Shown here piece by piece: positions 5,340 through 54,992 of a stretch of 64,000 nucleotides of DNA. This DNA comes from an uncultured bacterium (GTDB lineage Bacteria > Patescibacteriota > Minisyncoccia > Phycocordibacterales > UBA9973), in the NCBI GenBank assembly GCA_903894565.1, contig CAITQP010000006.1, positions 32,033-96,032 of the forward strand. Direction: 5' to 3'. A program made the position numbers and the translations under genes. How positions within the stretch are numbered: position 1 is the stretch's first letter; each line of letters begins with the position of its first letter. A model generated the notes under the pieces. That model had not been told where the DNA came from and did not search any database. It saw nothing but the letters and a program-made list of their open reading frames with translations.

Positions 5340-7874
5340 ATGCGGATGGAGAAACAACCTGATGCGAAAAAACCTCGTATTTTTGCTCGAGACCGAAAAC
5401 CGGCTCCATCCCCACACAATTTTCTCGAAGAAACGTTGACCAGTGAACGGAACTTACAGCAAGAAGCTGGAGTGAGTTTTGACGAGTCCCGACAGGAAAT
5501 TGAACCGCTTGATCAAACAGAAATTCAGTCAGAATTGAAACAATTGACCGGCCAATACGAGCGAACCAAAAAAATATTGAATTTGACGACTGAGCCATAC
5601 GCACGTGCGAATCTCATGCACGAACTGCTCACTCTTCGAGAGGCAGCACATGCTCTCAGTGATAAACCTGAAGACCTTGCAGAGTTTGGTCCAACGAAAG
5701 CTGAACGCAAAGAAGCTCGAGTGGCACTTGAGCGTTTGCGCATGGAAATGCTAGGTCATCTTTTGCAATTGACCGGTAGTATGAAAGGAGGACCTGAGGT
5801 TATTGAAGACTATGTTCGTCGAGCGGAAGAAATTCATCGCGAAGCAGGTCTCGGTGAAGAGGATTATCATCTCCTGAAGCCATTTCACGACGCACGAGCT
5901 GAACAGAAAAAAGAAACGCTCCCATCCGCTGGGGCTATCCTTGAGCATTCTTTTGCCAAAGAAATTCCGATGGCACCCGAGGATCTCCTTGGAAGCGCTG
6001 TTGTTCAGGAACGACAAATCGAGCAACCGAAAAAAGAACGCATGGAAAGTAGCGCGCTCTCACGCTGGGCCGGCAAGTTTTTCCTTGGCCGTGAACCTGA
6101 AGTTACGGAGCGCGTAGCGCGAGAGAAAAAAGAAGAGCAGAGGTCACTTCGTGAAAATCTCCCAGCTGTAAAAGAAAAGAAACAGTATGAAGCAAGTAGT
6201 GCGCTCTCACGCTGGGCCGGCAAGTTTTTCCTTGGCCGAGAACCTGAGGTTACTGAACGCGCGGCGCAAGAACGAAAGGCTGAACGCGAAATGGAGCGAG
6301 AGGCAAAGCATATGGAAAGTAGCACACTCTCACGCTGGGCAAGCAAATTTTTTCTTGGACGAGAACCTGAAGTTACGGAGCGTGTAGCACGAGAAGAAAA
6401 GAAAGAGAGAGAACAATCGGCCGCGCAAACAAAGGCACCACAAAAACAAGGAAGTGCCTTGGGTCGCTTTTTCCGCAAAACAGCTTTGGCTGGATTGCTT
6501 GGTTTTGCGTCCCTCCCAAGTAGTAACCAGAATCCAAATGAGGCTTTAGAAAAAATGAATCTTCCGAAGCAAGAAGTTGCGACAACGTATGTTATGCCGG
6601 CTCAAGAAAAACAAAAAGAAACGAAATCATCAGTGACGTATGTTCCGAAGAGAAATACATCCTCAGTTGAAAAGCTCGCACCGACCCCACGCATCGCCGA
6701 AGAAAGTCCAAAACAACAGGCCGCTCCAGTGAAACTTTTTGATTCTTTGGAAAAAGGCTATACCGTACGAACTCCAGACAAGAATCAGGATGCTCTGATG
6801 TTTTCAAAATTTCAAGAGTCGATGCAGGGCGTTCACTATTTTGAAGCAAATACATATTCAAAAGCACTTCAGACTATTATTCAGGAATACCACTTGAATG
6901 ATATTGCTCCCGAGTGGTTTATGAAACTAGAGCTTGAAGTTCCTCGCGGAACGAATGAAAAGAATTGGGATAATCCTCAAGAATTTTTTGAGACAGTTGA
7001 TTTCCCTGGTGGCGGAAGTACTGTCGGCTTACAAAATTATATGCAACTCTCTACCACTATGCTCAATTGGATGGCAAAGAGCCAAGAGAATTTTAATTGG
7101 GGAGTGGCATCACTCACGCATGAATATATCCATGCGTGGCAGAAGGCATCCGCTGGCATTGAGAGTCATAATGTACGAGAGGCGCAGGCACACTTTTTTA
7201 CGAGTCACCCAAATGCTTTTGCTAAGTTTCGTAACGAAAATTATGCTCCCCTTGGCAAAGATGGTAAGCCGAGCGCAACAGAAAAATATTCCGATGTTTC
7301 CGCTACTTTCCCTGAAGTCGACAACACACATAAGTTGATTGAAGCTTTGGAATTTGAGTCATACTACAAACAGTGCACAGAGGCTGAACGTGAGTCTCCG
7401 ATGATGAAGAAAATGCATCTTGTTTCATTACAAGAAACGCAGACACTTTTTGATAACGTTGATGACTCACACAAGTTTTGGTACGCGAGTGTGTTTGAGC
7501 AAGATTACAATACGGCCTCAGTTGAACGAAAAGGGGAGCTTCAAGCGGTACACGAAAAGGTTATGGGGTATGTTGGTGAGCTTGCCGGCATCACTGATCC
7601 GAATGAGTTCGGTGCTGTATCGCAGTACTTCTCTTTGTATCCAGAGACTTTTCCTGATTGGCTACAACAAAATGCCCAAGGCAAGACAGCTCCATCAATC
7701 ACGCTTACGAAGCGCAATTTTAGCGAGACACAGCGACAGCAAATCAGTGCAAACTTTGAGAAGTATTATGCTTCAGCAACTCCAGAAGCCAAGAACAAGT
7801 TGAATTCGATGCGCGAGAAACTTGTTCAGGCCCAAAATACGCTCGATGCCCGTGATATGATCGTGAGCCGATAG
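5340..7874 (+). CDS. Large hypothetical protein with three tandem 41–49-aa repeats and an HExxH motif
   Basis: Repeat SALSRWAGKFFLGREPEVTERVAREKKEE occurs three times (DNA about 6043–6400). C-terminal region contains THEYIHAWQ (HExxH). No signal peptide. Confidence 0.5.
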   Translation: MRMEKQPDAKKPRIFARDRKPAPSPHNFLEETLTSERNLQQEAGVSFDESRQEIEPLDQTEIQSELKQLTGQYERTKKILNLTTEPYARANLMHELLTLREAAHALSDKPEDLAEFGPTKAERKEARVALERLRMEMLGHLLQLTGSMKGGPEVIEDYVRRAEEIHREAGLGEEDYHLLKPFHDARAEQKKETLPSAGAILEHSFAKEIPMAPEDLLGSAVVQERQIEQPKKERMESSALSRWAGKFFLGREPEVTERVAREKKEEQRSLRENLPAVKEKKQYEASSALSRWAGKFFLGREPEVTERAAQERKAEREMEREAKHMESSTLSRWASKFFLGREPEVTERVAREEKKEREQSAAQTKAPQKQGSALGRFFRKTALAGLLGFASLPSSNQNPNEALEKMNLPKQEVATTYVMPAQEKQKETKSSVTYVPKRNTSSVEKLAPTPRIAEESPKQQAAPVKLFDSLEKGYTVRTPDKNQDALMFSKFQESMQGVHYFEANTYSKALQTIIQEYHLNDIAPEWFMKLELEVPRGTNEKNWDNPQEFFETVDFPGGGSTVGLQNYMQLSTTMLNWMAKSQENFNWGVASLTHEYIHAWQKASAGIESHNVREAQAHFFTSHPNAFAKFRNENYAPLGKDGKPSATEKYSDVSATFPEVDNTHKLIEALEFESYYKQCTEAERESPMMKKMHLVSLQETQTLFDNVDDSHKFWYASVFEQDYNTASVERKGELQAVHEKVMGYVGELAGITDPNEFGAVSQYFSLYPETFPDWLQQNAQGKTAPSITLTKRNFSETQRQQISANFEKYYASATPEAKNKLNSMREKLVQAQNTLDARDMIVSR

Positions 7875-10046: not shown

Positions 10047-10301
10047 ATGCCAATCACCAGTTCAGCCAAAAAGGCTATCCGTGTCAGTGCTCGCAAGAAG
10101 CTTGTTAATGATCGTCGCACACGCACGATGAAAGATGAGGTCAAGAAGATCGAAAAGGCAGTCAAAGCCGGAATGAAAGATGAAGCTTTGAAGATGATGT
10201 CAGTTACATTCGCTGCAATCGACAAGGCTGCGAAGCGTGGAGTCATCAAGAAGAACACTGCAAGTCGCAAAAAGGCTCGCATGGCTCGTCTTGTTAAATA
10301 G
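10047..10301 (+). CDS. rpsT: 30S ribosomal protein S20
   Basis: MPITSSAKKAIRVSARKKLVNDRRTRTMKDEVKK; length and composition typical of bS20. Confidence 0.85.
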   Translation: MPITSSAKKAIRVSARKKLVNDRRTRTMKDEVKKIEKAVKAGMKDEALKMMSVTFAAIDKAAKRGVIKKNTASRKKARMARLVK

Positions 10302-10303
10302 CT

Positions 10304-10392
10304 CGCAAAAGCACAAACAAAATATGCAGAAAAAAACACGGAGGAATGGGTCGACCGTGTTTTTTTCTGCATATTTTGTTTGTGCTTTTGCG
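10304..10392. repeat. 38-bp perfect inverted repeat with a 13-nt loop (left arm 10304–10341, right arm 10355–10392)
   Basis: CGCAAAAGCACAAACAAAATATGCAGAAAAAAACACGG ... CCGTGTTTTTTTCTGCATATTTTGTTTGTGCTTTTGCG; the arms are exact reverse complements. Confidence 0.9.
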
Positions 10393-10424
10393 AATTCTTT
10401 GCCGGACTGTATAATCAGGGGACT

Positions 10425-23042: not shown

Positions 23043-24065
23043 CTATCTTTTCTCCAGACTTTTCAGTACCTGTAAGTATAGATTTTCAACTATTTTTTCC
23101 TGGGGTATTCCCAGTTTCACATAGTGGTCAAGACCTGGGGCTGCGTTGATTTCGAGAACCCAGTACTTGTTAGGTTCTTGAGAAATATCTCCATCGATCA
23201 TTACATCTACTCCACACAAACGGAGATTCATATCATTTGTTAAGCGGACTGCTATCTTTTTGAAATCAGGGTGGATCTCTTTCGTAACATCAACAGAATC
23301 TCCACCCGTCGAAAGATTTGCGTTATCCAAAAGATATACTCGCTCACCATCAGGAGGGATAGATCGTACTGTTTTGCCTTGGTGCGCGAGCTTTATTTTG
23401 ATCCGAGGATCAGTCATTTTTATTTGCGTATCGCGTTTTTCAGTAATAAACTTTTTCTGTTTTTCTTTCAGGAGTTTTTCGATTGTTGACTTTCCGTTAC
23501 CCGTCACGCTCAAGGGGATTCTTTCATATGCTGAAATTACTTGATCGTCCAACACGACGATTCTGTAATCCTTTCCTTGAAGGGCTTTCTGTACGAGAGC
23601 AACGCGATCTCTTTTGAATATTGAACGCAACGCTTGGTACAGCTCCTTCTTATTGCGAACAAGAGAAACTCCGGAACCCTGACTCCCGCTGTTTGGTTTT
23701 ACGATCACAGGGAAGCCGATTTTCTGTGCGAAAATATATGCGGCGTCAGTATTCTTGTGTTTACTGCCGATTGCCTCTGCCCACTCTTTTGAAAAGAATG
23801 TTTTGCTATTGGGCACAACGGGGTACCCTAATCGTTTCATAAATATACTCGCGTAGTCTTTGTCTTTGGCAATATCTGATGCTCCAACGGGGTTGAGATC
23901 GAGCGTGTTGTAACGAAAATATGATTTCCTTCCGTTCTTAAAGGTGATTTGTCCTGCGATATTCCACTCAGGCTCAAGAAAAACCGTTGCGCCGATTTTT
24001 GGAGCGATTTTTTTTAGCATTTTACCGAGAATGAGGGACTCTTTCTTATTTTTCATAGAGAACAA
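23043..24065 (-). CDS. ATP-grasp family ligase (RimK / cyanophycin-synthetase-like)
   Basis: ATP-grasp features FPVIVKPNSGSQGSGV and a C-terminal Mg-binding VLEINAAPGL. Confidence 0.6.
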   Translation of the reverse strand: MFSMKNKKESLILGKMLKKIAPKIGATVFLEPEWNIAGQITFKNGRKSYFRYNTLDLNPVGASDIAKDKDYASIFMKRLGYPVVPNSKTFFSKEWAEAIGSKHKNTDAAYIFAQKIGFPVIVKPNSGSQGSGVSLVRNKKELYQALRSIFKRDRVALVQKALQGKDYRIVVLDDQVISAYERIPLSVTGNGKSTIEKLLKEKQKKFITEKRDTQIKMTDPRIKIKLAHQGKTVRSIPPDGERVYLLDNANLSTGGDSVDVTKEIHPDFKKIAVRLTNDMNLRLCGVDVMIDGDISQEPNKYWVLEINAAPGLDHYVKLGIPQEKIVENLYLQVLKSLEKR

Positions 24066-24429
24066 ATACTCGAATCATAGGATAGTCCTAATTATTTTTG
24101 CGGAGAGCGTCGTGTTAGAACCAAACGGTTCCTTACCCTGTAAGGCTTTGGGGACTACTTTCAGTATATCATTTTGACGCGTCTCGTGCGGACTAAAAAG
24201 TGACAAAAGTGACACTGCATAACTAGGAAAATGAGACAAAATGGGACACAAATCTGGCATTCTGGGACTGTCCCATTTTATATTAAACAACGATTCTTAA
24301 CTTTGTAAATACTCTCGGGTCATCACGGGTTATGTTCGTTATTTTTGACTAAATTGAATATACGTTGTAATGTATTGGCGGATAGTTTTTTGAAAAATTA
24401 TATTTAGTGACCACAGCAGGTAGAGCCTT

Positions 24430-24768
24430 TTGTGGTCACTAAATATGACAAATATGGAATTTCATCCTTTAATAACGCACATTGTTTGCGAATCACTTCC
24501 TAACGTAGCTGGGATAAAAAAACAGGCATCTCCGATCTGTTCTTCAACAGAAGATATCGCTCAAAATCATTACTTTTTAGGATATGCGGGTTCACGAAGA
24601 TTGCATTCAGACGATCTAAACAGTTCCGAGATTTATGCTTTGAAGGAACCTCTGGCTGTCACGAGATTGGCTTCGGTATGGATAGACAGCGATCGTAATG
24701 TATATTTGGAAGAACCAAATGTCTCAAACGACCAATGGAAACCAGTAACTAATTTTGGTATAAAGTAA
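24430..24768 (+). CDS. Hypothetical protein
   Basis: ORF only. Confidence 0.3.
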   Translation: MWSLNMTNMEFHPLITHIVCESLPNVAGIKKQASPICSSTEDIAQNHYFLGYAGSRRLHSDDLNSSEIYALKEPLAVTRLASVWIDSDRNVYLEEPNVSNDQWKPVTNFGIK

Positions 24769-25256: not shown

Positions 25257-26087
25257 TTGCGCGAGTCGCATACTAAGTATGGATTTTTAAAACAGGTTCT
25301 GTCTATCTCCGACATTGAATCAAAATTTTCCGTGTACCACACCGCTTGTATGCAAGGAAAAATCGCTGGCGGAATCATTGCTGAGGGATTCTCGTTTAAC
25401 ATTCTTCAATTCGTTGAAAACGCTATTACCTATCTTGAAAAGTCGGGAGTCCATTTTTTTTGGAATTCTGGTATTCAAAAAATAGAAATCAATAACGGAG
25501 TTGTTGAGGGCTTGGTAAATTCAAATGGAGAACTTCTTGTTGCTGACCACTATTCAATAAACCCCGGAGCATACGGCAATAGCATGCTCGACAATACCCC
25601 AGCAAAGGGCAAAATCGGTGGTGTCGCTGGAAGATGGATTATCATGCCCAGACCTAATGGATACGATATGCCCACTAAAATTCACGGCGGACAACGAGAG
25701 GGATTCCCTGTAACAGACAACAATCTGACACCGTTTATTCAAAACGGAAAACCCATGTGGGCTGTTGGTGGAGGGTATGTGTATGTTGGAAATAATAGTC
25801 AAAATTATCCCGACCAAGATTCATACGGAATCGTCGATTCAGAAAACGAAAGAACAATCAGGATTTTCACGGCTGATTTTTATGAATCAGCAAAAAAGAA
25901 TAATGGAATTATCGTTTGGCAAAAACCGTGTGTACGATCATTTAGCTACAACGATGCTCCTATTCATGAAATTTTACCGACTTCTCGCGGAGGTAAAATG
26001 ACAATTACGGCGGCTAGTAACACAGGAACTACAACTATTGCTCCTTATTTAGCTAAATGGACGGCGGACATTTTCAATCAAAGCTAA
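25257..26087 (+). CDS. Hypothetical protein
   Basis: ORF only. Confidence 0.3.
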   Translation: MRESHTKYGFLKQVLSISDIESKFSVYHTACMQGKIAGGIIAEGFSFNILQFVENAITYLEKSGVHFFWNSGIQKIEINNGVVEGLVNSNGELLVADHYSINPGAYGNSMLDNTPAKGKIGGVAGRWIIMPRPNGYDMPTKIHGGQREGFPVTDNNLTPFIQNGKPMWAVGGGYVYVGNNSQNYPDQDSYGIVDSENERTIRIFTADFYESAKKNNGIIVWQKPCVRSFSYNDAPIHEILPTSRGGKMTITAASNTGTTTIAPYLAKWTADIFNQS

Positions 26088-26226
26088 GCACAAGTACTAT
26101 CATATAGCCCGAGGAATTTTCCTTGGGCTATTTTATTTACAAAAATTACCAACACCCTGTTGCTGGGTTGGGTATCAAAAGTTTGAATGCAGAACGAAAC
26201 ATACACAGACAAGTCAGTGTATAAAA

Positions 26227-27471
26227 TTAATCTTTTTTGGAATTTGAAACTATGAATCGCGCTCGTTCGAGCAGTTCGTCAAAGGTAATCACCTCTGGTG
26301 ATGTCATGTTTTTACGGAGCAATTCAAAAGAAGAAAATTTCTCCTTGTTAATTCCATGCTCGGTAATGAACTCTGATAGGCAACCAACTATCAGATATGA
26401 TTTCGGTTGATAGGAGTACACTATCTCACCGTTCGGGTTGCCGGCATCATCCTGACCGTGAAGTTCTGTGCTCAAGTTCTCAACTGTCTTTTGTGCTGTC
26501 TTCTGTGCCTGTGCAATTCCTCCATTGAACTCATCCGATGCTTGCCAGCAATCCGCTCTATAGGCTTCTTTGACGAGTTTAATAAGGGGTGTCTTATGGG
26601 TCTTGAGTTCCACGAGGCATAGCGAATTAACCGCTCCTGTCGTTTTGAGCACGGCATCCGATCGTTTTCCAGACCGTGAAAGATCCGATCCTTGCACAAC
26701 CTGTTCAAGCTTCTTGCCCTCGAGGGGCTGGTTGAAAATGAAGTTGAGGCCATAGCCGAAAATCCATGGATTCGCCTCAAAGAAGTGTTGCCACACTGGT
26801 TCGATGCCGGCCTTCTTGATGTCGTGCTCCTTGCGATACACCTCAATGAGAGCGTCATCAGTCATGAGCTTCTCAAACACCTCGAGCTGTGCCTTTCGGT
26901 ACCCGATGTTCACGATGTCCATGGTTGTAATGTTTCCGCTCCCTATTGCTTCAACCATAAGTGCTTGACCCTCTGCTGTGGACATGACGTTGTTGAACTG
27001 CTTCACCGTCTCAGGGTCTAAACTGGGACTGTTGCCGAGTGGAATTCTGCGTTCGTTGATATCATTGAGATTAAGTTTATCCAACGACTGGAGAAAGCCG
27101 ATGAGTTCCTTAAAAAAGCGAAATGAGAATACAATCTGTTCATCTTGTTCAGCCCACCCCTTCTTGTAGTACTTGAATCGCTTGAATGAAATATCCTTAA
27201 TGTAACCATCACCTGCTTTCAGGAATGTGAGAGTGGTTTTGATTTTGTTTCGTATTGGCCATGGGTGTTCTGCTTCTACAGAATTTGGAACGTCGGTGTC
27301 GTCAGAAGACACAACAGTAAAATATTTACCGTCGCCTCTGCCAAAAGGATTAGTATAGAGATTATCTACACGATAGTTGTTGACTATCTCCGCCTCGCCT
27401 GGCTCAGTCAAGGTAGCAGGCATGTCTTCCGTTTCTGAAAAATCTATAAATATTGGTTCGTCGTCGTTCAC
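26227..27471 (-). CDS. PD-(D/E)xK nuclease-fold protein, possibly Shedu (DUF4263)-like defence protein
   Basis: C-terminal motif ...KRSDAVL...LCLVELKTHK (D...ExK); sits beside the recombinase in the island. Confidence 0.4.
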   Translation of the reverse strand: MNDDEPIFIDFSETEDMPATLTEPGEAEIVNNYRVDNLYTNPFGRGDGKYFTVVSSDDTDVPNSVEAEHPWPIRNKIKTTLTFLKAGDGYIKDISFKRFKYYKKGWAEQDEQIVFSFRFFKELIGFLQSLDKLNLNDINERRIPLGNSPSLDPETVKQFNNVMSTAEGQALMVEAIGSGNITTMDIVNIGYRKAQLEVFEKLMTDDALIEVYRKEHDIKKAGIEPVWQHFFEANPWIFGYGLNFIFNQPLEGKKLEQVVQGSDLSRSGKRSDAVLKTTGAVNSLCLVELKTHKTPLIKLVKEAYRADCWQASDEFNGGIAQAQKTAQKTVENLSTELHGQDDAGNPNGEIVYSYQPKSYLIVGCLSEFITEHGINKEKFSSFELLRKNMTSPEVITFDELLERARFIVSNSKKD

Positions 27472-27594
27472 ACCCGAAGCATATCACTCATACTGACCAT
27501 TCTCAAATTTGCACCTAATTGTGTTCTGAAAGTTACCAACAAATAGGAATTTCAGGGTCTATACTTTCCAGCCGTTCTGCGTCATCCATTAGAT

Positions 27595-27945
27595 GTGGAC
27601 GACATCGACGAGGTCATAAAAAGAGCCGATCATTACCGTTTTGACGATGCGCCCCGCGCGACGGTTCTGAACGCTATTTCGTCGCTGTCGTCGTCCAAGA
27701 AGAATCTCAAACGGTCTATAAAAGAAAGAATCCGATTGCTCGCAGGAGCATATGTTTCGCTAGCGACTTTCGTATCCGATGAAGACTTTGAATATGTGAA
27801 CGGCTTGCACGGTGAACCAGATCAAGAAAAAGTAAAGGAGGTTTTCGGAAAAGTATTAGTTGAAATGGACAAGCTCCGTAAGGACATTGAGGGCTTCGCT
27901 CTTACCGAGACAATAGAAACGTCGCCGACTGCTGAACGCTCTTAG
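27595..27945 (+). CDS. Hypothetical protein
   Basis: ORF only; immediately upstream of the recombinase. Confidence 0.3.
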   Translation: MDDIDEVIKRADHYRFDDAPRATVLNAISSLSSSKKNLKRSIKERIRLLAGAYVSLATFVSDEDFEYVNGLHGEPDQEKVKEVFGKVLVEMDKLRKDIEGFALTETIETSPTAERS

Positions 27946-27976: not shown

Positions 27977-29296
27977 ATGGAGACATATACCACAGCTCGT
28001 ATTGGAAAAGAGATCATCGCACCAGTTCAAAAAATTAAGTACGTTCTGTATGCTCGTAAATCGACTGAATCAGAAGAACGGCAGGTTCTGTCGATTGATT
28101 CGCAGATCAAGGAAATGCTAGATCTCGCTGAACGAGAGAAACTTGAAATTGTCGAGATCAGGCGAGAATCGCACTCGGCAAAAGAATCGGGTCAGCGACC
28201 TGTATATAAAGAAATTTTGGAGGACGTACGGCGAGGACGGTTTAATGGAATTCTGACATGGGCACCTGATAGATTAAGTAGAAACGCTGGCGACCTCGGA
28301 AGCATTGTCGATTTAATGGATCAGCAACTACTCATGGAAATCCGTACGTACGGACAGCAGTTCAAAAATTCACCAAATGAAAAGTTTCTTCTAATGATTC
28401 TTTGTTCTCAAGCAAAACTGGAGAACGACAACAAAAGTGTAAATGTAAAACGAGGACTGCGAACGAGAGTTGAGATGGGATTATGGCCTGGACCCGCCCC
28501 GACTGGCTATATGAAAGAAAAACGAATGGATAGAAAGTGCGAAACACTTCTTGACCCAGAACGAGCTCCCATCATTAAGAAGATGTTTGAAAAAGTCGCA
28601 TACGAACATTGGAGCGGACGAAAGATATATAACTGGCTCAAGTTTGATCTTAATATGAGAACCGCCGCAGGAAAGAAGCATTTAAGCTTAGGAAATATCT
28701 ACAAGATTTTGGACAATACTTTCTACTATGGCGTTTTTGAATATCCGAGAAAATCAGGCAACTGGTACACGGGAAAGCATGAAGCGATAGTCACCAAGGA
28801 ATTATTTGACCTTGTTCAAGCACAAATAAAAAGCAATGTGCTGAGAGTAGAAAACAAAGAATTCGCATTTACTAAAATGATGACCTGCGGATTATGCGGT
28901 TCGGGTATATCGGCAGACGAGAAATTCAAGAAGCTCAAGAATGGCGGTGTCGCTCGGTACGTCTACTACGGCTGTACTAAGGCGAGAGGAGTTGAGTGCA
29001 AATGCGGATACACCGAGGAAAAAGAAATTTTGAAACAATTTAATGAACTGATAGAAAAAATCAATTTGAACGAGATAGAAGTTAAAGAAAAAATAAAGGC
29101 TGATGTGGAGAAATTCACTAAGCTACAGAAATTCCTTTTGGGAACGAAAGAAAAAGTCAGCACCAACAGCGTTGATGTTCGAGGATATGCAAAATTTGTC
29201 CTGAAAGAAGGAAGCGATATTGAGAAGCGAGAATTGCTTGGTTGTTTGAAGAGTAGAATCTGTTTAGCGAATAAGAAAATCACCTTGAAACAATAA
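27977..29296 (+). CDS. Large serine recombinase (resolvase catalytic domain + recombinase domain + zinc ribbon)
   Basis: YARKSTESEERQVLSIDSQ (catalytic Ser), GILTWAPDRLSRN, and C-terminal CGLCGS...YYGC...C.C; paralogue of 40135–41454. Confidence 0.85.
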   Translation: METYTTARIGKEIIAPVQKIKYVLYARKSTESEERQVLSIDSQIKEMLDLAEREKLEIVEIRRESHSAKESGQRPVYKEILEDVRRGRFNGILTWAPDRLSRNAGDLGSIVDLMDQQLLMEIRTYGQQFKNSPNEKFLLMILCSQAKLENDNKSVNVKRGLRTRVEMGLWPGPAPTGYMKEKRMDRKCETLLDPERAPIIKKMFEKVAYEHWSGRKIYNWLKFDLNMRTAAGKKHLSLGNIYKILDNTFYYGVFEYPRKSGNWYTGKHEAIVTKELFDLVQAQIKSNVLRVENKEFAFTKMMTCGLCGSGISADEKFKKLKNGGVARYVYYGCTKARGVECKCGYTEEKEILKQFNELIEKINLNEIEVKEKIKADVEKFTKLQKFLLGTKEKVSTNSVDVRGYAKFVLKEGSDIEKRELLGCLKSRICLANKKITLKQ

Positions 29297-29300
29297 CGAC

Positions 29301-29975
29301 TTATTTTAATTCAGGTATCATAGTCATGATGTCGTTTGTGGTGCTGTCAGACTTTTTTATCACAGTACTTCTTTCCATATCCACAAAATTCCTTTGACCG
29401 CCAGTCTTGCAGAATGCTCCCCAGTCACATTTATACTTGAAGCAATCGGGAAATATTCCAATGAAACTAAAGTTCGTATTGTTTTCTTCGTTTACTATTA
29501 AATACACGGCACCTGAGTTCGGATTCATCTTTTTTATGTAATCTGAAACCAAAACGTGATCAAAATGCTCTTGTCTTCTGACAAAGCCAACCACCATATT
29601 CCCCGCATAATCTTTATCTTGAAGTTTTCTTTTAATTGATTCTTCTATCTTCTCGCCCTTATCAAACTCGCTGATCTCAAATATCTCAACTGGTTGCTCT
29701 GATAGGCTGTTTCCTTTGCCGTCAGCGCGGGGTATCAAACGCATCGCCAAAACATCAGGCGGATCTTTTTCAGGTATTTGAATCCACCATTCAGCAGGCT
29801 CTGCTTTTGCTCGGCAAATCAAAGCAACCGCACAAACCCATGCTTCCTTGTTTTTATCTATTTTCTTTTGATTTCCCGATTGTACAGTTCTCGCAATTTC
29901 ACTGATTACGTAATTGGGAGAAAACCAGATATTTTTACTATAGGGTCGAATTGCCATAATTTTATTATAAGACAC
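29301..29975 (-). CDS. Hypothetical protein (island 1 cargo, gene 2 of a two-gene operon)
   Basis: Overlaps the upstream gene by 11 nt; weak PD...E-like motif (KDPPDVLAM...EIFEISEFDK); no firm assignment. Confidence 0.4.
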   Translation of the reverse strand: MSYNKIMAIRPYSKNIWFSPNYVISEIARTVQSGNQKKIDKNKEAWVCAVALICRAKAEPAEWWIQIPEKDPPDVLAMRLIPRADGKGNSLSEQPVEIFEISEFDKGEKIEESIKRKLQDKDYAGNMVVGFVRRQEHFDHVLVSDYIKKMNPNSGAVYLIVNEENNTNFSFIGIFPDCFKYKCDWGAFCKTGGQRNFVDMERSTVIKKSDSTTNDIMTMIPELK

Positions 29976-31212
29976 TCTTTGGTTTGCTGGAAAGCCAGTT
30001 AATCAAAGCCCTGAAAACCAGATTTGAAATTGCCCTATGAAAAGCATCTTCGTAAGATTTCTGATACCCCAAAAACCCCATTGGTTCAAAATCTCTAGCA
30101 AATACTTTTTCTCCATGAAGCATGGTAGATCTAATATCGTAGATATAACTTTTCTCTTCTTTGGATAGTTTAGAATATTCCTCATTGGAGTATTTTTCCA
30201 AAAAGTCCTTGAAGCTTTTTCCTAACCTATATTTGGGTTCGCCACATATATCACATTTTTCTATGGATTTGTCAGTGAGAGCTGATCCGCATTTACATTT
30301 TTCTACGTCGTTCATGAGGCATTCAATACTCGTTACTAAACAAACATACGAAACAGAATGTGAAGTTTTCCAGACCTCGCTTGCTGTATACAACCAGTAA
30401 CAAGAAGTAATGAATTTTGGATAGTCGTCAGTATCCAACGTAAAAATAATATCTAGCAATTTACTGGCGTCTTCAACAAGAGTTAATTCATTGCTTTTAC
30501 TTTTTCCAAACTCGAGATCTCTTATGTGTTTTGTTGATGAAAATGAATTGTCCGCTTGGAATTTTTTACCGTAAAAATAACCCATTTGCTTAAACTCGCT
30601 GGTTGTCATTTCTATGTCTTCGTTGTTTATAACGACCCAGTCAAACTGACCGAATCGGGAAGGGCCATAAAACCTTCTTTGCGATAATAAATGTAACAAC
30701 GTGATTAGTTCTCGAGATTTCTTATTTTTTCTAAATGCGTTAACTTGAGCGTTCTTTGACGAAATATATTTGTATTCCAATAAAATTGGGTGATGTCCCC
30801 ACATCTGATTCTCTATTTGAGGTGCCCCAGACGGCATGGGCAGTATCTGAAATAGGTCTTTATATGTAAAATACTCCTCAGCTTTAGAGCCTGTCACGAA
30901 GCAAATATCTCTGCCGACCATTACATCCTGAGCATCAATTAGCTCATCCTGTATTCTTTGTTGAATTTCATTTATATCTTTCTCGCTGAGTTTTGAACCA
31001 TTTTCGATCGACCGAATCTTTCCTTTTGGATCATAAAATATAGTTACAGAAAAATCGTAATCAGTTTCTTCTTTATGATATAGAGATTTGCCCTCATATG
31101 GACCACTACCTCTTCCGAAATATGACAAGAGCACCATTTCTAGTTCGTCTTGCTTTATCTTATTTAAATAAAATTTTTCTTTCAGTTCCATGTTATTTCC
31201 TGTTTCTCCCAT
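29965..31212 (-). CDS. Hypothetical protein with a C-terminal CxC...CxxC zinc-ribbon (island 1 cargo, gene 1 of the operon)
   Basis: KCKCGSALTDKSIEKCDICGEPKY; no recognisable catalytic motif. Confidence 0.45.
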   Translation of the reverse strand: MGETGNNMELKEKFYLNKIKQDELEMVLLSYFGRGSGPYEGKSLYHKEETDYDFSVTIFYDPKGKIRSIENGSKLSEKDINEIQQRIQDELIDAQDVMVGRDICFVTGSKAEEYFTYKDLFQILPMPSGAPQIENQMWGHHPILLEYKYISSKNAQVNAFRKNKKSRELITLLHLLSQRRFYGPSRFGQFDWVVINNEDIEMTTSEFKQMGYFYGKKFQADNSFSSTKHIRDLEFGKSKSNELTLVEDASKLLDIIFTLDTDDYPKFITSCYWLYTASEVWKTSHSVSYVCLVTSIECLMNDVEKCKCGSALTDKSIEKCDICGEPKYRLGKSFKDFLEKYSNEEYSKLSKEEKSYIYDIRSTMLHGEKVFARDFEPMGFLGYQKSYEDAFHRAISNLVFRALINWLSSKPKSVL

Positions 31213-31263: not shown

Positions 31264-31290
31264 TTGATAGCATCTCGTGCTACCTGTCAA

Positions 31291-31380
31291 TGGCGGAGGC
31301 GGTGAGATTCGAACTCACGGTACCCTTTCGGATACGACAGTTTTCAAGACTGTTGCCTTCAACCACTCAGCCACGCCTCC
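31291..31380 (-). tRNA. tRNA-Ser (anticodon TGA), type II with long variable arm, CCA encoded
   Basis: The reverse complement folds as GGAGGCG/CGCCTCC acceptor, anticodon loop CTTGAAA, variable arm, and T-arm GAGTTCGAATCTC. Confidence 0.85.
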
Positions 31381-39491: not shown

Positions 39492-39630
39492 GATTTATGT
39501 TGTGCCCCAACCGCGTCTCGGACGAAGTGGTATCAACCAGTGTAAGCGTTCTTTGGTGATTTTCCAAGCGTAATTCTGAGGCACCCGCATAGGGGTCAAT
39601 TTTCCCAAAATCAGCAGTTTCAAAGAAATT

Positions 39631-49953: not shown

Positions 49954-50037
49954 GCGCAGGTGGCGAAACTGGTAGACGCACTACCTTGAGGTGGTAGCAC
50001 CCGCAAGGGTATGGAAGTTCAAGTCTTCTCCTGCGCA
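49954..50037 (+). tRNA. tRNA-Leu (anticodon GAG), type II
   Basis: Acceptor GCGCAGG/CCTGCGC, anticodon stem-loop CTACC-TTGAGGT-GGTAG, long variable arm, T-arm GGAAGTTCAAGTCTTCT. Confidence 0.85.
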
Positions 50038-50045
50038 CAAGGAAA

Positions 50046-50075
50046 ATAACTCTTACATTGTAAGGGTTATTTTTT
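50046..50075 (+). terminator. Terminator hairpin ATAACTCTTAC-ATT-GTAAGGGTTAT + TTTTT (member of a repeated hairpin family)
   Basis: 11-bp stem with one G·U, followed by a T tract, directly after tRNA-Leu. Confidence 0.6.
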
Positions 50076-50115
50076 ATCCCTAAAACAAAGTTTGAATTTT
50101 TGATATACTAAGAAC

Positions 50116-51093
50116 ATGGAACAATTTCCTGGAAAAAATCGTCTAGAAAAGGCTACAGATTTTTTAAAAGAACAAAAAAAGAAAACCATTATATATGGTA
50201 GTCTTGTTGCTACTCTTGGAGGTCTCGCTGTCCCGGAAAAGACCCAAGCACAACAAAGTTCTGTCGACACTAGCATCTTTAAAAAAGTCGACATGAGGAA
50301 TGAATATAGATTTACCGATCAGGACTCTTTAGTAAGTGACAGTGCTTTTCGTTCAAAATTAGAATATTTTGAGAATAATCCTCATTTGATTTTAGATGAA
50401 TCAATAGACTCATTAGAAAAACAGCGTGATTGGGTTTTGGATAAAATGGATGACCCTGTGTATTTGATGCGTGCTACAAAATACGAAGGACTTTTAATTC
50501 AAGATATTAATAAAAGAAAAGAATATCTTAAGAATGCAAAGATTGTTTTTGTTGAGTCGGATAAAATTCGCTCTACTGAAGTTGGCGATGCGGCAGGACA
50601 TACATATGGATATAGAGATAATGCAATTATAGCGGTGGCCACTAAGTCTAAAAACTTGAAAAATAAAGTTCCTGTTGTTGTTCATGAATCTGCTCATGCA
50701 AGACCAACAATGTCTGCTTATGCATATAATCTTTATCAATCTGCATTTTTTCACGTCGAGGACTCAATTGCAGCTTCGAAAAATAAAACATACGGCACAC
50801 CTGATTGGGGTTTTACAGAAACATCCATGGACACAAAAGAAGAGCTTATTGCGTATCAGAAATATTTTTCTCAGGCAGAAGAATTGGATGCATCAAGACA
50901 TGTATTTGAGTACGAGATTGAAAAATTGGGTATTAAAAAATATGGAGATGAATTCACGGATGAAACTTTTGATAAGGTTTTACGCGCGATAAAAGAAGGC
51001 AAGTTGAGCAATAATGCCGTTGAATTTTTTACCCATATTAATCCAGAAGAGCATGGTAAATGGATTAAGCTTATAATGAATACGATTGCATAG
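50116..51093 (+). CDS. Hypothetical exported protein
   Basis: Signal/anchor IIYGSLVATLGGLAVPEKTQAQQ; contains VVVHESAHA (possible HExxH-like). Confidence 0.4.
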   Translation: MEQFPGKNRLEKATDFLKEQKKKTIIYGSLVATLGGLAVPEKTQAQQSSVDTSIFKKVDMRNEYRFTDQDSLVSDSAFRSKLEYFENNPHLILDESIDSLEKQRDWVLDKMDDPVYLMRATKYEGLLIQDINKRKEYLKNAKIVFVESDKIRSTEVGDAAGHTYGYRDNAIIAVATKSKNLKNKVPVVVHESAHARPTMSAYAYNLYQSAFFHVEDSIAASKNKTYGTPDWGFTETSMDTKEELIAYQKYFSQAEELDASRHVFEYEIEKLGIKKYGDEFTDETFDKVLRAIKEGKLSNNAVEFFTHINPEEHGKWIKLIMNTIA

Positions 51094-51197
51094 GAGTTTG
51101 CTGACAGATAAGAGTGATTTTTTTTACGATACTGACGATATTTTCTCAGTCCTCCATATATCCACGATAGGAAACCAAGTATGATCTGGGTTTCTAA

Positions 51198-51267
51198 TGA
51201 AATAATTCCTAACGTCGTCTAGTAGGGAGCACAACGAAAAACACCCTTACATTGTAAGGGTGTTTTT
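51198..51267 (+). repeat. About 70-bp intergenic repeat element ending in a perfect terminator hairpin (copy 1)
   Basis: TGAAATAATTCCTAACGTCGTCTAGTAGGGAGCACAACGAAAAA + ACACCCTTAC-ATT-GTAAGGGTGT-TTTTT; second copy at 54993–55067. Confidence 0.8.
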
Positions 51268-51308
51268 CTATACAAAATTGAGGTTGGAACCTGTGTTAGA
51301 ATTTATAT

Positions 51309-51962
51309 ATGGAAGAATTTAAACCTGATTTAAACAATGCGCAACCAAAACCAGAGGAATCATCCCAGGTAAATGAAAGGCCTATTAGTCCCGAGGATTT
51401 TTTTTCAACTAAAATTGAGACCTATCGTCTTACCAAAGATAACTTCTATAAGCTCATCAAACAGCGGAATCCTGAAATGGATGACGACAAGATATGGCAA
51501 GCAAAGGGAGTTAACATGGAGATGAACGGAAAAGTTATAATACTTCTGAGAACAGATAAATACCCTGAACAGTATATGCCGTACTTGGAGACCCATGAAA
51601 AATGGGAAGCATATATTGCTCGAAAAAACGGATTTAATTTATGGGACAGATCTGTGAGGCGATACAAGGAAGACAAGGAAATTGATTCTTTGGAGGGTGA
51701 CAAGCTGAAAGAATTTTTTAAGGAGCTGGAAGTTTATAATTATGATTTTCGTCATGAATACGCAATATACAAAGAATATCAGCAAGCTCTAAGTGATGGC
51801 AGGTTGGAGGAGTATCATAAATGGTTTATGGAGCTGCGTGAGACAGAAAAATCGGGATCGAGTGAAGCAAATTTAAAGTTGATAGAGAATGACACCAACA
51901 TACGAGAATCAATCTATAAAAAACTAACTGAAGGCGGTACTCATATATTTACGCGTAATTAG
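51309..51962 (+). CDS. Hypothetical protein
   Basis: ORF with acidic/aromatic composition; followed by a repeated downstream motif at 51974–52010 (also seen at 51134–51170). Confidence 0.4.
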   Translation: MEEFKPDLNNAQPKPEESSQVNERPISPEDFFSTKIETYRLTKDNFYKLIKQRNPEMDDDKIWQAKGVNMEMNGKVIILLRTDKYPEQYMPYLETHEKWEAYIARKNGFNLWDRSVRRYKEDKEIDSLEGDKLKEFFKELEVYNYDFRHEYAIYKEYQQALSDGRLEEYHKWFMELRETEKSGSSEANLKLIENDTNIRESIYKKLTEGGTHIFTRN

Positions 51963-52233
51963 TAATCGGTGCAGACGATATTTTTTCAGCTCTCCATAGA
52001 TCCACAATAAAAATGCTTCAATAGTGATTGTTTCTTGTTCGACTGGAAAAGCTCACGGAATAGCTCAACATATTTCGAAAACATATGACACGGGCGTGGT
52101 CGGTCCGAAAGTGACGACAAGTCTCAGGAGTCTCAGCGCTTCTTTCGATGAAGAAGGGAAAATAAAAATCGATGGGACATACCAGGAGGAAAAAGGCATA
52201 GACCCCAAGCAAGTATATTCAAAAGGAAGACCA

Positions 52234-53010
52234 TTATAAACTTTTATGTAATCTCTGAGCTTCAGCCCAAGCAAGTTCATATATTTTTTTCATAGCATCA
52301 GCAATCTCAGTACTTTCAATAATGATGCCAAGCTTTTCTCTCCACGAAGCTATCATGACTTTGTTGTCATAGATATTGATTTCTGGATGGAATCCAAATT
52401 GACTTGAGGGCACTATCAATGATTGACGGAGTTCTTGTTTGTCTAAGCTTGCTCGTTCTCGAGCATCAGCAGATTCAGGGAAAATTGCTCGGATTGAGAT
52501 TCCTTTCTTTGCGCGTCGTTTATAGTAGTCAGGAAAATAATGGGGCAGGGTAGGCTTTATATCCTCTACACTGGCGAAAGCTCGAATTTCTTCATGTGAA
52601 GTCAGAGTGTCTTCGTACACTTTTTGCAGACCTTCTTTTCCTTCGTAAAAAAGTACTTTCGGGCGGTTGTTTATATTGTGTATTGATTTCAATTCGGGAA
52701 TGACAAGACGCGCCTCTTCAAGATATTTTTTTTGCTTTTCTAATTGCTCTGATATAAGAACCTCGATCTTATCGGGAGATTCTGCTACGAACTCTTGTTT
52801 CGGTTCTTTGCCGGATACCTGAACAAGCCCTTTCGCGGTGAGGGAGGCGAGCACATGGTAACCACTTGGACGATTTATTCCAGCTTTTCTTGAGATCTGA
52901 GTGACACTACCCGCGCCTAATTCTAAAAGAGCTATATATACAAGGATTTCTTTTTCACTAAAACCAATGAATTCAAGGCTTTTTTCGATGTGTAAGGTTT
53001 GGTTAGACAT
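52234..53010 (-). CDS. TrmB-family transcriptional regulator
   Basis: wHTH EKEILVYIALLELGAGSVTQISRKAGINRPSGYHVLASL; start at the internal Met (53010) or at 53049. Confidence 0.65.
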   Translation of the reverse strand: MSNQTLHIEKSLEFIGFSEKEILVYIALLELGAGSVTQISRKAGINRPSGYHVLASLTAKGLVQVSGKEPKQEFVAESPDKIEVLISEQLEKQKKYLEEARLVIPELKSIHNINNRPKVLFYEGKEGLQKVYEDTLTSHEEIRAFASVEDIKPTLPHYFPDYYKRRAKKGISIRAIFPESADARERASLDKQELRQSLIVPSSQFGFHPEINIYDNKVMIASWREKLGIIIESTEIADAMKKIYELAWAEAQRLHKSL

Positions 53011-53125
53011 AATATAAGTATATAGGAAAGGATAGTTATTTGTCAACAACTATCAACAGAATTTTAATCTAACTTAAATACACATACAAATTAAGGCTAT
53101 TTAGCAAGTATATTGATTATACTTA

Positions 53126-53153
53126 TTGACAATATGTATATTATATATATAAT
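53126..53153 (+). promoter_or_regulatory. Sigma70-like promoter TTGACA-16-TATAAT upstream of the radical SAM gene
   Basis: TTGACA at 53126–53131 and TATAAT at 53148–53153. Nearby TTGTCAA/TTGACAA inverted motifs could be an operator for the divergent TrmB regulator. Confidence 0.4.
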
Positions 53154-53193
53154 ATGGTCGAATTTTGTTAACTTTTAAAACCAAATAAGACAA

Positions 53194-54951
53194 ATGAAAA
53201 AAGCAAAAAGTATCATCGGAAACGCTGTACAGCGTATGGGGATAATCATATGTATTATCTCAGTTGCCCTCATGGGTATGTCGTTCACTCCTGAGAAAGT
53301 ACTTGTGCTTTCGGGGAGTGGGTATGAAATGAGTATAGAGCATTATTTACCATCAGGAGAACGCGTTCGTGTTCCTAACGGATGTAAGCGCGAAGTCGTC
53401 GGATTTGACTCTTGTATGTCAGCTGTTCGTTTGTGGGGAAGTGGATGGACTACAAATACCCGACATTCAGAAAAAAGGATTAAGGTGGGATTTAAATCGT
53501 CTTATTTTAAAAGACAGGAGAAGATGCTATTCGCTGTTGCTCCTGTTCTTGGACTAAGGCAAAAGCGTATCCTAGTCATTCATTTAAAATACCCGTATGG
53601 AAAATCTCAAATTTACATGGGTGGTTCAACTATCTCTGTTATGGCGCGATTTAAACACATGGGTTACGAGGTTGATTATCTCGACTTAAATTTTGATCCT
53701 ACTCCTGGTGATGATATTGGTTCATTTCACAAAGCCAAAAATGCTGACATTATTGCAATCTCTGTGACTGGGGCGCCGTATGTTCCTTCACTTATTGATT
53801 TGACCTGGGAGCTCTCTCACTTTGGTCGGGGGAAGCAGATACTACTTGGTGGGCAGGTAATTGAAAGACTTGATTCTGCGCAATTCGAATCTCTTTTCGG
53901 TAGTAAAATGTTTGGCAATGTGAAGCAAATTGTAACAGACGCTGATTTTGCAAAAGCACTTGATTGTACTGTCGGTGAGTTGCCGAACCCGTACGCCATA
54001 TCTTTTGTTCCTGCATGGGAAAGTATTGGTAACGAGCGACTCAAGAAATATCTCTCAAACGAGATGACACTGGTTCTTTCGCAAGGGTGTCACTTTCAGT
54101 GTGCGTTCTGCGCTGCGAGTAAGGCCGAGAGGGAGAAATTCAAAATGATGGATTGCTTCTCAACAGATCTTTTGTTTTTGACTTCAAAAGCAAAAGAATT
54201 TGGCCTAAAGGAATTACAGTTCTACGCAACATCTTTGGATTTTTTTCAGAATCCTAAAATTGTAGCGGGTTACCTTGAGGAAGTGGGGAGGATTCAGTCA
54301 GAAACAGGAATCAAGATTAAGATTCGCTGTCTATGTTGCGCTTCTTCATTTCTGCACGCTGCGAAGGTTGTGGGTGAACTGCGGCTTAAGACGTTGATAC
54401 AGGAATCAGGGCTATGGTGTATTGGTTTTGGAGTGGATGGAGCGGACGCAGATGTCTGGAAAGCTCAAAAGAAGCGTCAGAACAATCTTAATGAAATTAA
54501 GGACTGCCTCGATCTCGCTACAAGAATGAATATACGCTCTGAGATCTTGCTTGTTATGGGTTTTCCTCAGGATACCCTAAAGACCCTCGCAAAATGCGTT
54601 ATCAATTCAGTACGATATGTTTCGCATTGGCCAAACATAATGCTCAGACCGTATCTTGCAAAGGAGCTTGTTCCTGGTAACGACGGATGGAAATCCGGCA
54701 ATCCCGCCGTGAATACTTTTATCTCAGACCCTAAGAAATTCTACAATTTGGATTTCTGTGCGATTGGCTCGAAGAGTACACATCCGAGTTTCATGCATCG
54801 TATGTGGAGTAATCTTTCCTACCTGACTATTATCGGCATCTTTACTCCGTTAGGTAAGTGTTGCACGTCTCCATTATTACCACAGGGCGATGCAGGTCTG
54901 TATGGAAGGTTCGCAAAGTTCTTTAATCGCATCGTTCCGATGGACCGTTAA
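53194..54951 (+). CDS. B12-binding-domain radical SAM protein (with an N-terminal hydrophobic extension)
   Basis: CHFQCAFC (Cx3Cx2C) radical SAM cluster motif preceded by a Rossmann-like B12-binding region KRILVIHLKYP; start may be the internal Met at about 53524. Confidence 0.6.
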   Translation: MKKAKSIIGNAVQRMGIIICIISVALMGMSFTPEKVLVLSGSGYEMSIEHYLPSGERVRVPNGCKREVVGFDSCMSAVRLWGSGWTTNTRHSEKRIKVGFKSSYFKRQEKMLFAVAPVLGLRQKRILVIHLKYPYGKSQIYMGGSTISVMARFKHMGYEVDYLDLNFDPTPGDDIGSFHKAKNADIIAISVTGAPYVPSLIDLTWELSHFGRGKQILLGGQVIERLDSAQFESLFGSKMFGNVKQIVTDADFAKALDCTVGELPNPYAISFVPAWESIGNERLKKYLSNEMTLVLSQGCHFQCAFCAASKAEREKFKMMDCFSTDLLFLTSKAKEFGLKELQFYATSLDFFQNPKIVAGYLEEVGRIQSETGIKIKIRCLCCASSFLHAAKVVGELRLKTLIQESGLWCIGFGVDGADADVWKAQKKRQNNLNEIKDCLDLATRMNIRSEILLVMGFPQDTLKTLAKCVINSVRYVSHWPNIMLRPYLAKELVPGNDGWKSGNPAVNTFISDPKKFYNLDFCAIGSKSTHPSFMHRMWSNLSYLTIIGIFTPLGKCCTSPLLPQGDAGLYGRFAKFFNRIVPMDR

Positions 54952-54966
54952 ATTAATCTATTCCAA

Positions 54967-54988
54967 CAGCCCCGATTTCTCGGGGCTG
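54967..54988 (+). terminator. Hairpin CAGCCCCG-ATTTCT-CGGGGCTG after the radical SAM gene
   Basis: 8-bp GC-rich stem then TTTAT. Confidence 0.5.
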
Positions 54989-54992
54989 TTTA

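Follow-up and report, generated by a model that had tools for sequence, protein, structure and literature searches.

What does an array of short repeated units do beside the junction of a genomic island when it is not itself the junction? The question is raised by positions 24196–24278 of a 64,000-nt stretch of contig CAITQP010000006.1, from an uncultured bacterium of the Patescibacteriota; the whole stretch is called the window below. In this cluster, direct and inverted copies of a short motif lie near the far end of a genomic island (island 1), and a related array occurs in a second island (island 2). The original prediction took the motifs for attachment (att) sites recognised by the paralogous large serine recombinases (LSRs) of the two islands. 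We find that 24196–24278 is the innermost part of a conserved end module belonging to a family of Patescibacteria islands in which an LSR inserts the element at the 3' ends of tRNA genes. From sequence comparison we tentatively favour a role of the array as accessory or regulatory protein-binding sites on double-stranded DNA, located on the P' arm of attP.

Island junctions lie outside the motif clusters

The window contains two islands, each with its own LSR (LSR1 and LSR2, 54% identical), and to this extent the original prediction stands. A tRNA forms the right boundary of each (Table 1), and the properties expected of a tRNA-targeting LSR island were all found, namely LSR domains, an insertion absent from a relative and a distal repeat of the target end. 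The outer-end repeats of both islands are short (7–8 nt). A sensitive self-BLAST of the tRNA-Ser end within island 1 gave no direct repeat beyond the 7-nt core at its left junction, and the left junction of island 2, at ~39501, is a copy (TGTGCCCC) of the tRNA-Arg 3' end. The empty site for island 2 is seen in a close relative, L067 (GCA_037143195.1; ATP-grasp enzyme 90% identical), where tRNA-Arg(tct) lies 19 nt from the metallophosphatase start codon, compared with 8.1 kb (39501–47594) in the window. For island 1 the search for an uninterrupted tRNA-Ser locus succeeded in part: L067 is without the genes of 24.1–31.3 kb, but no clean empty site was obtained, as a 1.3-kb islet sits there with one 245-aa gene, no LSR and the direct repeat CTGCGGAGG at its bounds. 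The same short repeat bounds island 1 and this different islet at tRNA-Ser. Look-ups of exact protein matches, meant to find the strain on another contig, returned only the same arrangement (L066).

As had been proposed, the motif clusters lie at the tRNA-distal (left) end of both islands, and they do so in related islands of many genomes. They begin 97 bp (island 1) and ~130 bp (island 2) inward of the left junctions. Since a copy of the tRNA end and then an arm of ~100 nt precede the array, the motifs are subterminal and are not the crossover core, and the clusters do not occupy the island/host boundary as an LSR crossover site would. The proposal that the cluster marks the far boundary of island 1 is therefore correct to within 100 bp, except that the motifs themselves are not the junction.

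The two ends of an island do not carry related half-sites. A scan of the window found no copy of the common unit AATGNNACA near 31.2–31.3 kb or 47.5–47.6 kb, the tRNA-proximal ends, which have instead a conserved motif, X (GGCCTCCGCATCGACCTTGG; Ser type CATCTCGTGCTACC), without likeness to AATGNNACA. Directly 3' of tRNAs the X consensus reads GGCCTCCGCATC(G/T)(A/G)CCTTGG and is followed by the tRNA end TGTGC...; X adjoins Glu, Arg, Gly and Leu tRNAs. Because it is conserved beside many tRNAs, we take the X arm as the probable LSR half-site (CCTCCGCAT / TCTCGTGC type), and together with the 5' part of the flank element described below it would form a sequence of ~43 bp, partly dyad-symmetric as judged by eye. 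A string inside the LSR open reading frame (ORF) of three other loci (CTCCGCATGACCTTCTAC; L001 6673, L017 6736, L019 6755) resembles the X arm CTCCGCATCGACCTTGG, which may be a coincidence or a pseudo-site.

Directly to the left of every motif cluster is a flank element of ~100–110 nt, found besides the window in L001, L002, L017, L019, L029, L034, L048, L059 and L062. The type A flank of island 1 gave nhmmer matches in L048, L034, L071, L075 and ~15 metagenome loci, and its initial ~35 nt mimic the acceptor and T-arm of tRNA-Ser. The 5' bases of the flank copy the 3' end of the target tRNA (TTGCGGAGAGCG..GTTAGAACC compared with TGGCGGAGGCGG..ATTCGAAC in tRNA-Ser, and TGTGCCCC compared with TGTGCCCCC in tRNA-Arg), and its 3' bases repeat the X core (GCCTCCGCAT in type B, TCTCGTGC in type A). 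In addition, GCGTCTCGTGCGGAC (24181–24194), in the 3' part of type A, repeats the tRNA-Ser-adjoining motif of 31266–31290. The flank element has no Rfam match, no consensus RNA fold on either strand, and no tRNA call by ARAGORN at lowered thresholds. Doublets of the unit follow in 11/11 of the flank elements found. The array thus has the location of an accessory or arm-type site: it lies beside the crossover, on an arm borne by the element, and is kept with the integration module.

From the distal end inward, the islands are laid out as a 7–8-nt copy of the tRNA end, the ~100-nt arm, an array of (A)AATG-NN-ACA units, cargo, a leader and the LSR gene, a terminator, the X arm and the tRNA. Islands can also stand in tandem. 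A 105-nt direct repeat (44074–44178 and 47513–47617, 81% identical), consisting of an X arm and ~23 nt of a decayed tRNA-Arg 3' end, joins the LSR2 island to a second island with Fic and helicase genes.

Anatomy and conservation of the repeat array

The strings originally reported for the cluster are all present: AAAAGTGACAAAAGTGACAC at 24196–24215, AAAATGAGACAAAATGGGACAC at 24228–24249 and the inverted repeat AAATGGGACA-N20-TGTCCCATTT at 24239–24278 (site A). Site A was aligned with site B (39642–39682) upstream of LSR2 and matches it position by position; sites C, D, E and G align with them too, and the invariant columns of the six-site alignment read AATG..A...ATG..A..C......A...T..CA.T. 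This column-by-column agreement bears out the claim that the 24196–24278 cluster shares both unit and architecture with the sites of island 2.

The unit AATGNNACA has 22 matches in the window as against 12.6 ± 3.3 in shuffles, and 16 of the 22 fall in two stretches totalling ~500 bp (3 at 24230–24277 and 13 at 39634–40067). Tandem Repeats Finder reports doublets at 24196–24214 (period 9) and 24228–24253 (period 10), with counterparts in island 2 at 39634–39651 and 40018–40036 and a 57-bp tandem duplication spanning sites B and C. A lone 10-bp inverted repeat would be unremarkable in a window with 84 short inverted repeats; the significance of the cluster comes from a unit and an architecture that are shared and that recur in other genomes, not from any single inverted repeat.

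In each site two tandem units (AATGNNAC, then AATGNNACAC) are followed, after ~14 nt of spacer, by an incomplete unit in forward orientation and then by one in inverted orientation (..NNAC-T-GTNNCATTT). Between the 10-bp inverted arms (AAATGNNACA / TGTNNCATTT) lie 20–21 bp, so that their centres are ~31 bp or three helical turns apart, and an extra direct unit lies 9–10 bp, or one helical turn, upstream. Two symmetric variants occur, site G (>> .. <<) and one internal everted site (<< .. >>), and site A contains an inner palindrome, TGGGAC-T-GTCCCA, at 24263–24275. The inverted repeat at 24400–24446 ends at the start of a small ORF, and its membership of the array is uncertain.

The 2-nt core of the unit varies among sites (GG, GC, AG, TT, TG) and agrees between the arms of one site. 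Over 15 sites, partly hand-picked as canonical, the arms are 94% complementary, compared with 84% in shuffles and 27–46% in slid controls. One core column of these sites contains AU:9 GC:4 UA:2 with no mismatch and the other GC:9 CG:2 UA:2 with two mismatches, and there are 10 double changes. The distal unit pairs with the inverted unit more weakly than the proximal arms do with each other. In a pattern-defined set of unit pairs, with both strands counted, the cores are identical in 32 of 54 pairs as against 14.2 ± 2.8 in shuffles. The core types of the sites are GAGAC, GGGAC, GGCAC, GTTAC and GTGAC.

The recombinase search gave 65 related loci, nearly all from Patescibacteria metagenome-assembled genomes (MAGs) with Paceibacteria, Nomurabacteria, Taylorbacteria or 'Saccharibacteria' labels. 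The minimal island, in L048, comprises only a type A flank, a GTGAC doublet, 115 bp and the LSR1 ortholog. The 22-nt string AAAAAGTGACAAAAGTGACACT is invariant in the window, L048 and L034 whereas the remaining flank is only ~70% identical, and this invariance of the doublet beside a diverging flank counts as a sign of selection. The B–G array has an ortholog in L029 (12026–12415, reverse strand) that is 79% identical overall, with 90% identity in the units and 75% in the other columns; the LSR genes of the two islands are 65% identical in nucleotides and 60% in amino acids, and their cargo is unrelated. By these identities, conservation is higher in the array than in the LSR gene, and on the strength of this and of its fixed geometry the array is very probably functional. 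The second island of L029 has the order array, cargo, LSR (9581–8259) and tRNA-Leu(taa). MAG JAHFNO01 (L062) has at least two other LSR islands (L029). LSRs that are 78–87% identical to LSR2 carry different first doublets, and the idea that core type tracks LSR clade was rejected, as no correlation was seen.

Polarity was assessed in an unbiased sample of 120 metagenome contigs containing the GAGAC doublet AATGAGACAAATGAGACAC. An LSR was within the fetched stretch of 16 loci, 14 of which have it downstream of the doublet and on the doublet's strand, and the first downstream tRNA was on the opposite strand in 15/15. A recognisable flank was present in 17 sampled loci, most of these flanks ending at or just before the doublet, and the inverted partner GTCTCATT followed at a gap of 23–25 nt in 27 loci and of 15–16 nt in 8. 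Likewise, a tRNA scan of LSR loci nearly always placed an opposite-strand tRNA downstream of the LSR gene (+), usually within ~0.1–4 kb and often at 80–600 bp, with Arg-tct, Arg-cct, Arg-ccg, Arg-gcg, Leu, Glu, Met, Ser, Lys and Gly tRNAs all represented. Two IMG/VR contigs carry the end module, L071 and L075, the latter with an LSR 64% identical to LSR1; a search of IMG/VR for LSR relatives in excised form found none.

Possible roles of the array

The reading that we hold to be the best of those considered, though still a tentative one, is that the array consists of accessory or regulatory sites to which a protein binds. The place of the array in the excised circle would be 100–550 bp from the crossover on the P' side of attP, and after integration it would stay with attL. 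Two copies of the protein could bind the doublet one turn apart and one could bind the inverted copy three turns away, and the bound copies would then form an accessory or regulatory nucleoprotein structure, comparable to those at lambda arm-type or resolvase res accessory sites, that controls recombination or expression of the island. Protein binding is favoured because of the fixed helical-turn geometry, the presence of both direct and inverted copies, an orientation that is constant with respect to junction, LSR and tRNA, and conservation above that of the LSR gene. The binder could be the LSR, by means of a second specificity, or a conserved host factor, which is equally possible because the LSR is all that the islands share and yet its presumed half-site differs from the unit.

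Several points weigh against this. No binding protein was identified and no conserved accessory gene was found in the islands, and binding by the LSR would need the second specificity because the probable half-site CCTCCGCAT/TCTCGTGC is unrelated to AATGNNACA. Islets without an LSR (L140, L129) retain the junction, the flank and a doublet or site, and some viral contigs have doublets without a nearby LSR. To our knowledge, no known large serine integrase has been reported to need accessory DNA sites. Finally, the covarying core is the pattern that base pairing predicts; with a single binder the cores would have to be uncontacted and their symmetry maintained by template switching, a well-established source of mutation in quasi-palindromes, and otherwise several paralogous binders would be required.

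Base pairing in RNA or single-stranded DNA (ssDNA) explains the core covariation directly and is the main rival, although we consider it unlikely overall. In a transcript, or in ssDNA exposed by replication or transfer, the sites would then be stem-loops with a 10-bp stem and a ~20-nt loop of conserved sequence, serving as terminators or insulators, processing sites, a priming signal or an attC-type recombination substrate. Besides the compensatory changes at the two core positions and the excess of pairing over shuffles, this agrees with a conserved loop length, a partly conserved loop sequence (CAAAA..GG.GGTATTT) and strong folding z-scores (array -7, site A -3.9 to -4.1). The symmetry nevertheless appears to belong to the DNA and not to an RNA, because both strands of the array fold equally well (z = -7.2, -7.1), because the few mismatches between arms, as read directly from the site sequences, would be G-U pairs on the + strand for site C and the everted site but on the - strand for site B and the D site of L029, and because units are interleaved in L001 (1> 2> ... 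<1 <2) and everted in the window. Interleaved and everted orders do not fit nested hairpins, and the extra direct copies (units 1 and 3) have no simple role in a stem-loop. The covariation itself, which in part was measured on sites hand-picked as canonical, can also come from template switching in quasi-palindromes, and this too counts against the stem-loops.

As for specific stem-loop functions, the inner palindrome of site A with its T-run scores as terminator-like and is the only part of the site to do so. The main inverted repeat has a 20-nt loop, which makes a poor terminator, as well as A/T-rich arms and a position away from gene ends. Terminator-like matches beyond the shuffle level number one per scanned region. 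No Rfam family matches the elements, the whole window giving only tRNAs at the gathering threshold and both regions only chance-level matches at E < 1. A scan of both regions for sigma-70-type promoters found no excess over shuffles, and the idea of an outward promoter, by which the island would restore expression of the host gene severed from its tRNA, was given up since other loci have the gene to the left of the flank in either orientation.

Carried further, the accessory-site reading would make these islands an LSR system that depends on an element-borne array of sites, unlike the phage integrases studied. The core classes, symmetric within each site, could then belong to a res-like or arm-like directionality device. 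Alternatively, the array could be a docking platform of multiple specificities by which islands or helpers recognise, exchange and mobilise cargo at tRNA hot spots. We regard this extended reading, in either form, as improbable.

Quite improbable, in our estimate, is that the sites serve secondary exchange or capture of cargo, as in an integron-like platform, or are hot spots of illegitimate recombination. The 79% identical array shared by islands with unrelated cargo and LSRs only 60% identical would fit, as would homology that breaks at site edges and a left half-site that abuts the cargo at the array end in L001, L002 and L019. Cargo genes, however, are not individually flanked by sites (island 1 has none beyond 24446), matching right half-sites were not found beyond the cargo, and any functional element would show such a limit of conservation at its edge.

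We see very little probability in a reading by which proteins of the host or of a helper phage use the array to replicate the excised circle, as iterons of an origin, or to package it. The IMG/VR contigs L072–L074 carry dense AAAGTGACA(C) and AAAGTG(G/C)CAC units in both orientations, adjoining primase-helicase (Prim-Pol/DUF3987) or helicase and ssDNA-binding genes, and these clusters may be origin iterons that merely resemble the island units. In another IMG/VR contig, L070 (IMGVR_UViG_3300020195_001307), a tRNA-Ser-like junction and a GAGAC doublet lie between a NUDIX gene and a ParB-methylase/terminase-like operon; a stretch of this contig is 100% self-identical with a period of 9117 nt, a sign that the contig may be concatemeric or circular, or else an artefact of assembly. 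The very similar clusters beside replication genes in AT-rich viral contigs speak for this reading, as does the doublet upstream of the terminase operon, and the variety of core types could match several helpers. In the islands, on the other hand, no replication or packaging gene is conserved, an initiator included, and neither an AT-rich unwinding element nor DnaA boxes were noted beside the arrays. The look-alikes by replication genes occur only in unrelated viral contigs, and may be no relatives at all but resemblances picked up with a short, A-rich, repeat-like query.

Least probable of all is the original proposal that the motifs are att crossover sites bound by both paralogous LSRs: although site sizes are LSR-like (the 40–41-bp inverted repeat compares with attB, the 51-bp site G with attP), the spacer centre is partly conserved, synteny breaks at sites (inside B in L062, at fused B/C and right after G in L029) and several arrays end with a left half-site beside cargo, at the island junction this reading is by now largely excluded, given the empty site and tRNA-end repeats 100–130 bp to the left, the absence of units from the tRNA-proximal end, the X arm of unrelated sequence beside many tRNAs, six to seven sites standing back to back with no DNA between them, and core types independent of LSR lineage. 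The L062 break (6082–6113) fuses the left half of a site-B homolog to codon ~165 of the LSR gene; a site-specific event was rejected there, as the junction resembles a plain deletion that removed the remaining array together with 5' coding sequence of the LSR. Likenesses to sigma-54, DnaA-box, parS, dif and CRP/OmpR-type sites were compared by eye and set aside for partial matches or wrong spacing.

Island genes and comparison with known systems

The coordinates of the features are compiled in Table 1. A leader of ~60–90 nt (AAGTTACCAAC ... CCTGGACTCC..GGAGGGGTTGCGTCATC) precedes every LSR gene; in some loci its GTTACCAAC is a tandem doublet with an 11-bp period, and a degenerate copy lies at 26139–26154. 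The 116-aa ORF between leader and LSR1 has homologs (35–45% identity) directly upstream of the LSR in 9 other loci, and its product is a candidate directionality factor or regulator. The cargo between array and LSR is different in every island examined (TrmB regulator, CoaE, PPDK and unknown proteins), and being unrelated from island to island it leaves the LSR as the one shared gene. For the same reason a conserved gene for a DNA-binding partner beside the arrays was considered and rejected, the 116-aa ORF being confined to a subset of LSR1 type and absent from the minimal L048 island.

Table 1. Features of the two islands and their surroundings in the window.
Feature	Coordinates	Strand	Basis or remark
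ATP-grasp enzyme	23043–24065	-	
Flank element type A (P' arm)	24095–24217	+	nhmmer, window E=4e-37; 24099–24195 as P' arm
Left junction of island 1 (attL core), TGCGGAG	24099–24105	+	copy of tRNA-Ser 3' end (TGGCGGAGG at 31291)
Tandem doublet AAAAGTGAC AAAAGTGAC AC	24196–24215	+	Tandem Repeats Finder
Site A doublet, AAAATGAGACA (unit 1) and AAATGGGACAC (unit 2)	24228–24249	+	Tandem Repeats Finder, site alignment
Site A inverted repeat	24239–24278	strandless	alignment, folding, terminator scan
Inverted repeat with 21-nt arms, ATATTTAGTGACCAC...GTGGTCACTAAATAT	24400–24446	strandless	GTGAC-like core; folding z = -8.6
Shedu SduA defence protein	26227–27471	-	
Conserved LSR1 leader, AAGTTACCAAC...CTGCGTCATC	27529–27590	+	
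116-aa ORF between leader and LSR1	27595–27945	+	no family match
LSR1 (Resolvase, Recombinase, Zn_ribbon_recom)	27977–29296	+	Pfam
Island-side X arm, Ser type, right junction, GATAGCATCTCGTGCTACCTGTCAA	31266–31290	+	
tRNA-Ser(tga), integration target of island 1	31291–31380	-	
Flank element type B	39497–39609	+	starts TGTGCCCC, ends GAGGCACCCGCATAGGGGTCA
Array of sites B, C, D, E, everted site, F, AAATGCC doublet, G	39626–40070	+	
LSR2 (same domain types)	40135–41454	+	Pfam; conserved leader 40074–40134
Internal junction of tandem islands	44074–44178	+	self-comparison; copy of 47513–47617
tRNA-Arg(tct), integration target of island 2	47595–47667	-	X arm at ~47560–47594

Within island 1, the ORF at 25257–26087, probably a cargo gene that has been truncated, aligns below the Pfam cut-off to an FAD-dependent oxidoreductase (DAO), and only to its C-terminal two thirds. 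Between LSR1 and tRNA-Ser, at 29301–31212 and near Shedu, two minus-strand ORFs of 224 and 415 aa overlap; neither has a Pfam match, and they may be a further defence pair. The second island at tRNA-Arg (44074–47617), between the LSR2 island and the tRNA, encodes Fic/DOC (44314–45363) and a 710-aa helicase (45375–47507) and no recombinase. The order of tandem islands differs between genomes, since L062 has the Fic and helicase genes on the other side of the LSR module. Directly upstream of the Fic gene, at 44269–44313, three copies of TAATCTAATA followed by an inverted TTAGATT form a different repeat family, probably the operator of the Fic gene itself. Further along, the 3' end of tRNA-Leu(gag) with a hairpin (50035–50077) recurs at 51229–51271 and 55024–55066, and an 83-nt repeat occurs at 51185 and 54980; these repeats within 49954–55066 probably represent additional islands in tandem, here on the opposite strand. 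At 10296–10400 there is an inverted repeat of unusual length, with 46-nt arms (93% complementary) and a 13-nt loop.

Patescibacteria have tiny genomes and little has been described of their gene exchange; a literature search found no description of this island family. It is a widespread and simple type of island, in which one LSR and a non-coding end module of ~0.3–0.6 kb are the only parts conserved between islands, and its members insert at many tRNA genes, accumulate in tandem and have both defence (Shedu, Fic) and metabolic genes as cargo. Control of recombination by the array, if it exists, would add a new level of regulation to the large serine integrases, which serve as genome-engineering tools and for which control of directionality is a practical problem. 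Even as no more than an operator or insulator, the array would be of use as a marker of where islands end in these genomes.

The array compares most directly with the arm-type sites of lambda attP, sites II–III of Tn3/gamma-delta res and site II of Sin, where direct and inverted units, likewise spaced by whole helical turns, stand beside the crossover in one partner only. In those systems the units match a known recombinase domain or a named host factor and have one sequence, whereas here the core dinucleotide varies. Integron attC sites are also similar, being imperfect palindromes of ~57 bp with conserved architecture, variable sequence and paired arms, set in arrays on a recombination platform. 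They are, however, recombined as folded single strands by a tyrosine integrase and each follows a cassette ORF, while the islands have only serine recombinases and sites back to back at 57–80-bp intervals without ORFs between them; no GTTRRRY (R/L box) is visible in the site alignments and no IntI was found. LSR1 shares its Resolvase-Recombinase-zinc ribbon organisation with SPbeta SprA/YokA (PDB 9dxh), its best relative of solved structure (E = 6e-14), though distant in sequence. The attP and attB sites of phage LSRs are ~40–50 bp long, with targets in protein-coding or intergenic DNA, and have neither repeat arrays nor a conserved arm of 100 nt. Among large serine integrases, then, the subterminal array has no counterpart that we know of or could find, and its likeness to arm-type or accessory sites would be one of position only.

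For the islands as a whole there are closer parallels. The ssrA islands of Dehalococcoides have a CcrB-like serine recombinase, DsiB, and stand in tandem at the tmRNA 3' end with a 20-bp repeat (PMC3146451); the target at the 3' end of a tRNA-like gene, tandem arrays, short repeats, a conserved adjacent motif and variable cargo are all common to both. They differ in that the Dehalococcoides islands use only tmRNA and carry a six-gene module with a second small recombinase, with no subterminal array of 9–10-bp units described (PMC3146451), whereas many tRNAs are used here and a single LSR is the sole conserved gene. Tycheposons and related cryptic tRNA-targeting elements of Prochlorococcus likewise bring cargo to tRNAs, leave partial repeats of tRNA ends and accrete in tandem; a minority carry an LSR, most using tyrosine recombinases and many having replication genes, and the passages of that preprint retrieved by a term search note no comparable repeat array (bioRxiv 10.1101/2020.12.28.424599). 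In a phylum for which literature searches gave no such description, the island family resembles the Dehalococcoides islands and the LSR-bearing elements of Prochlorococcus.

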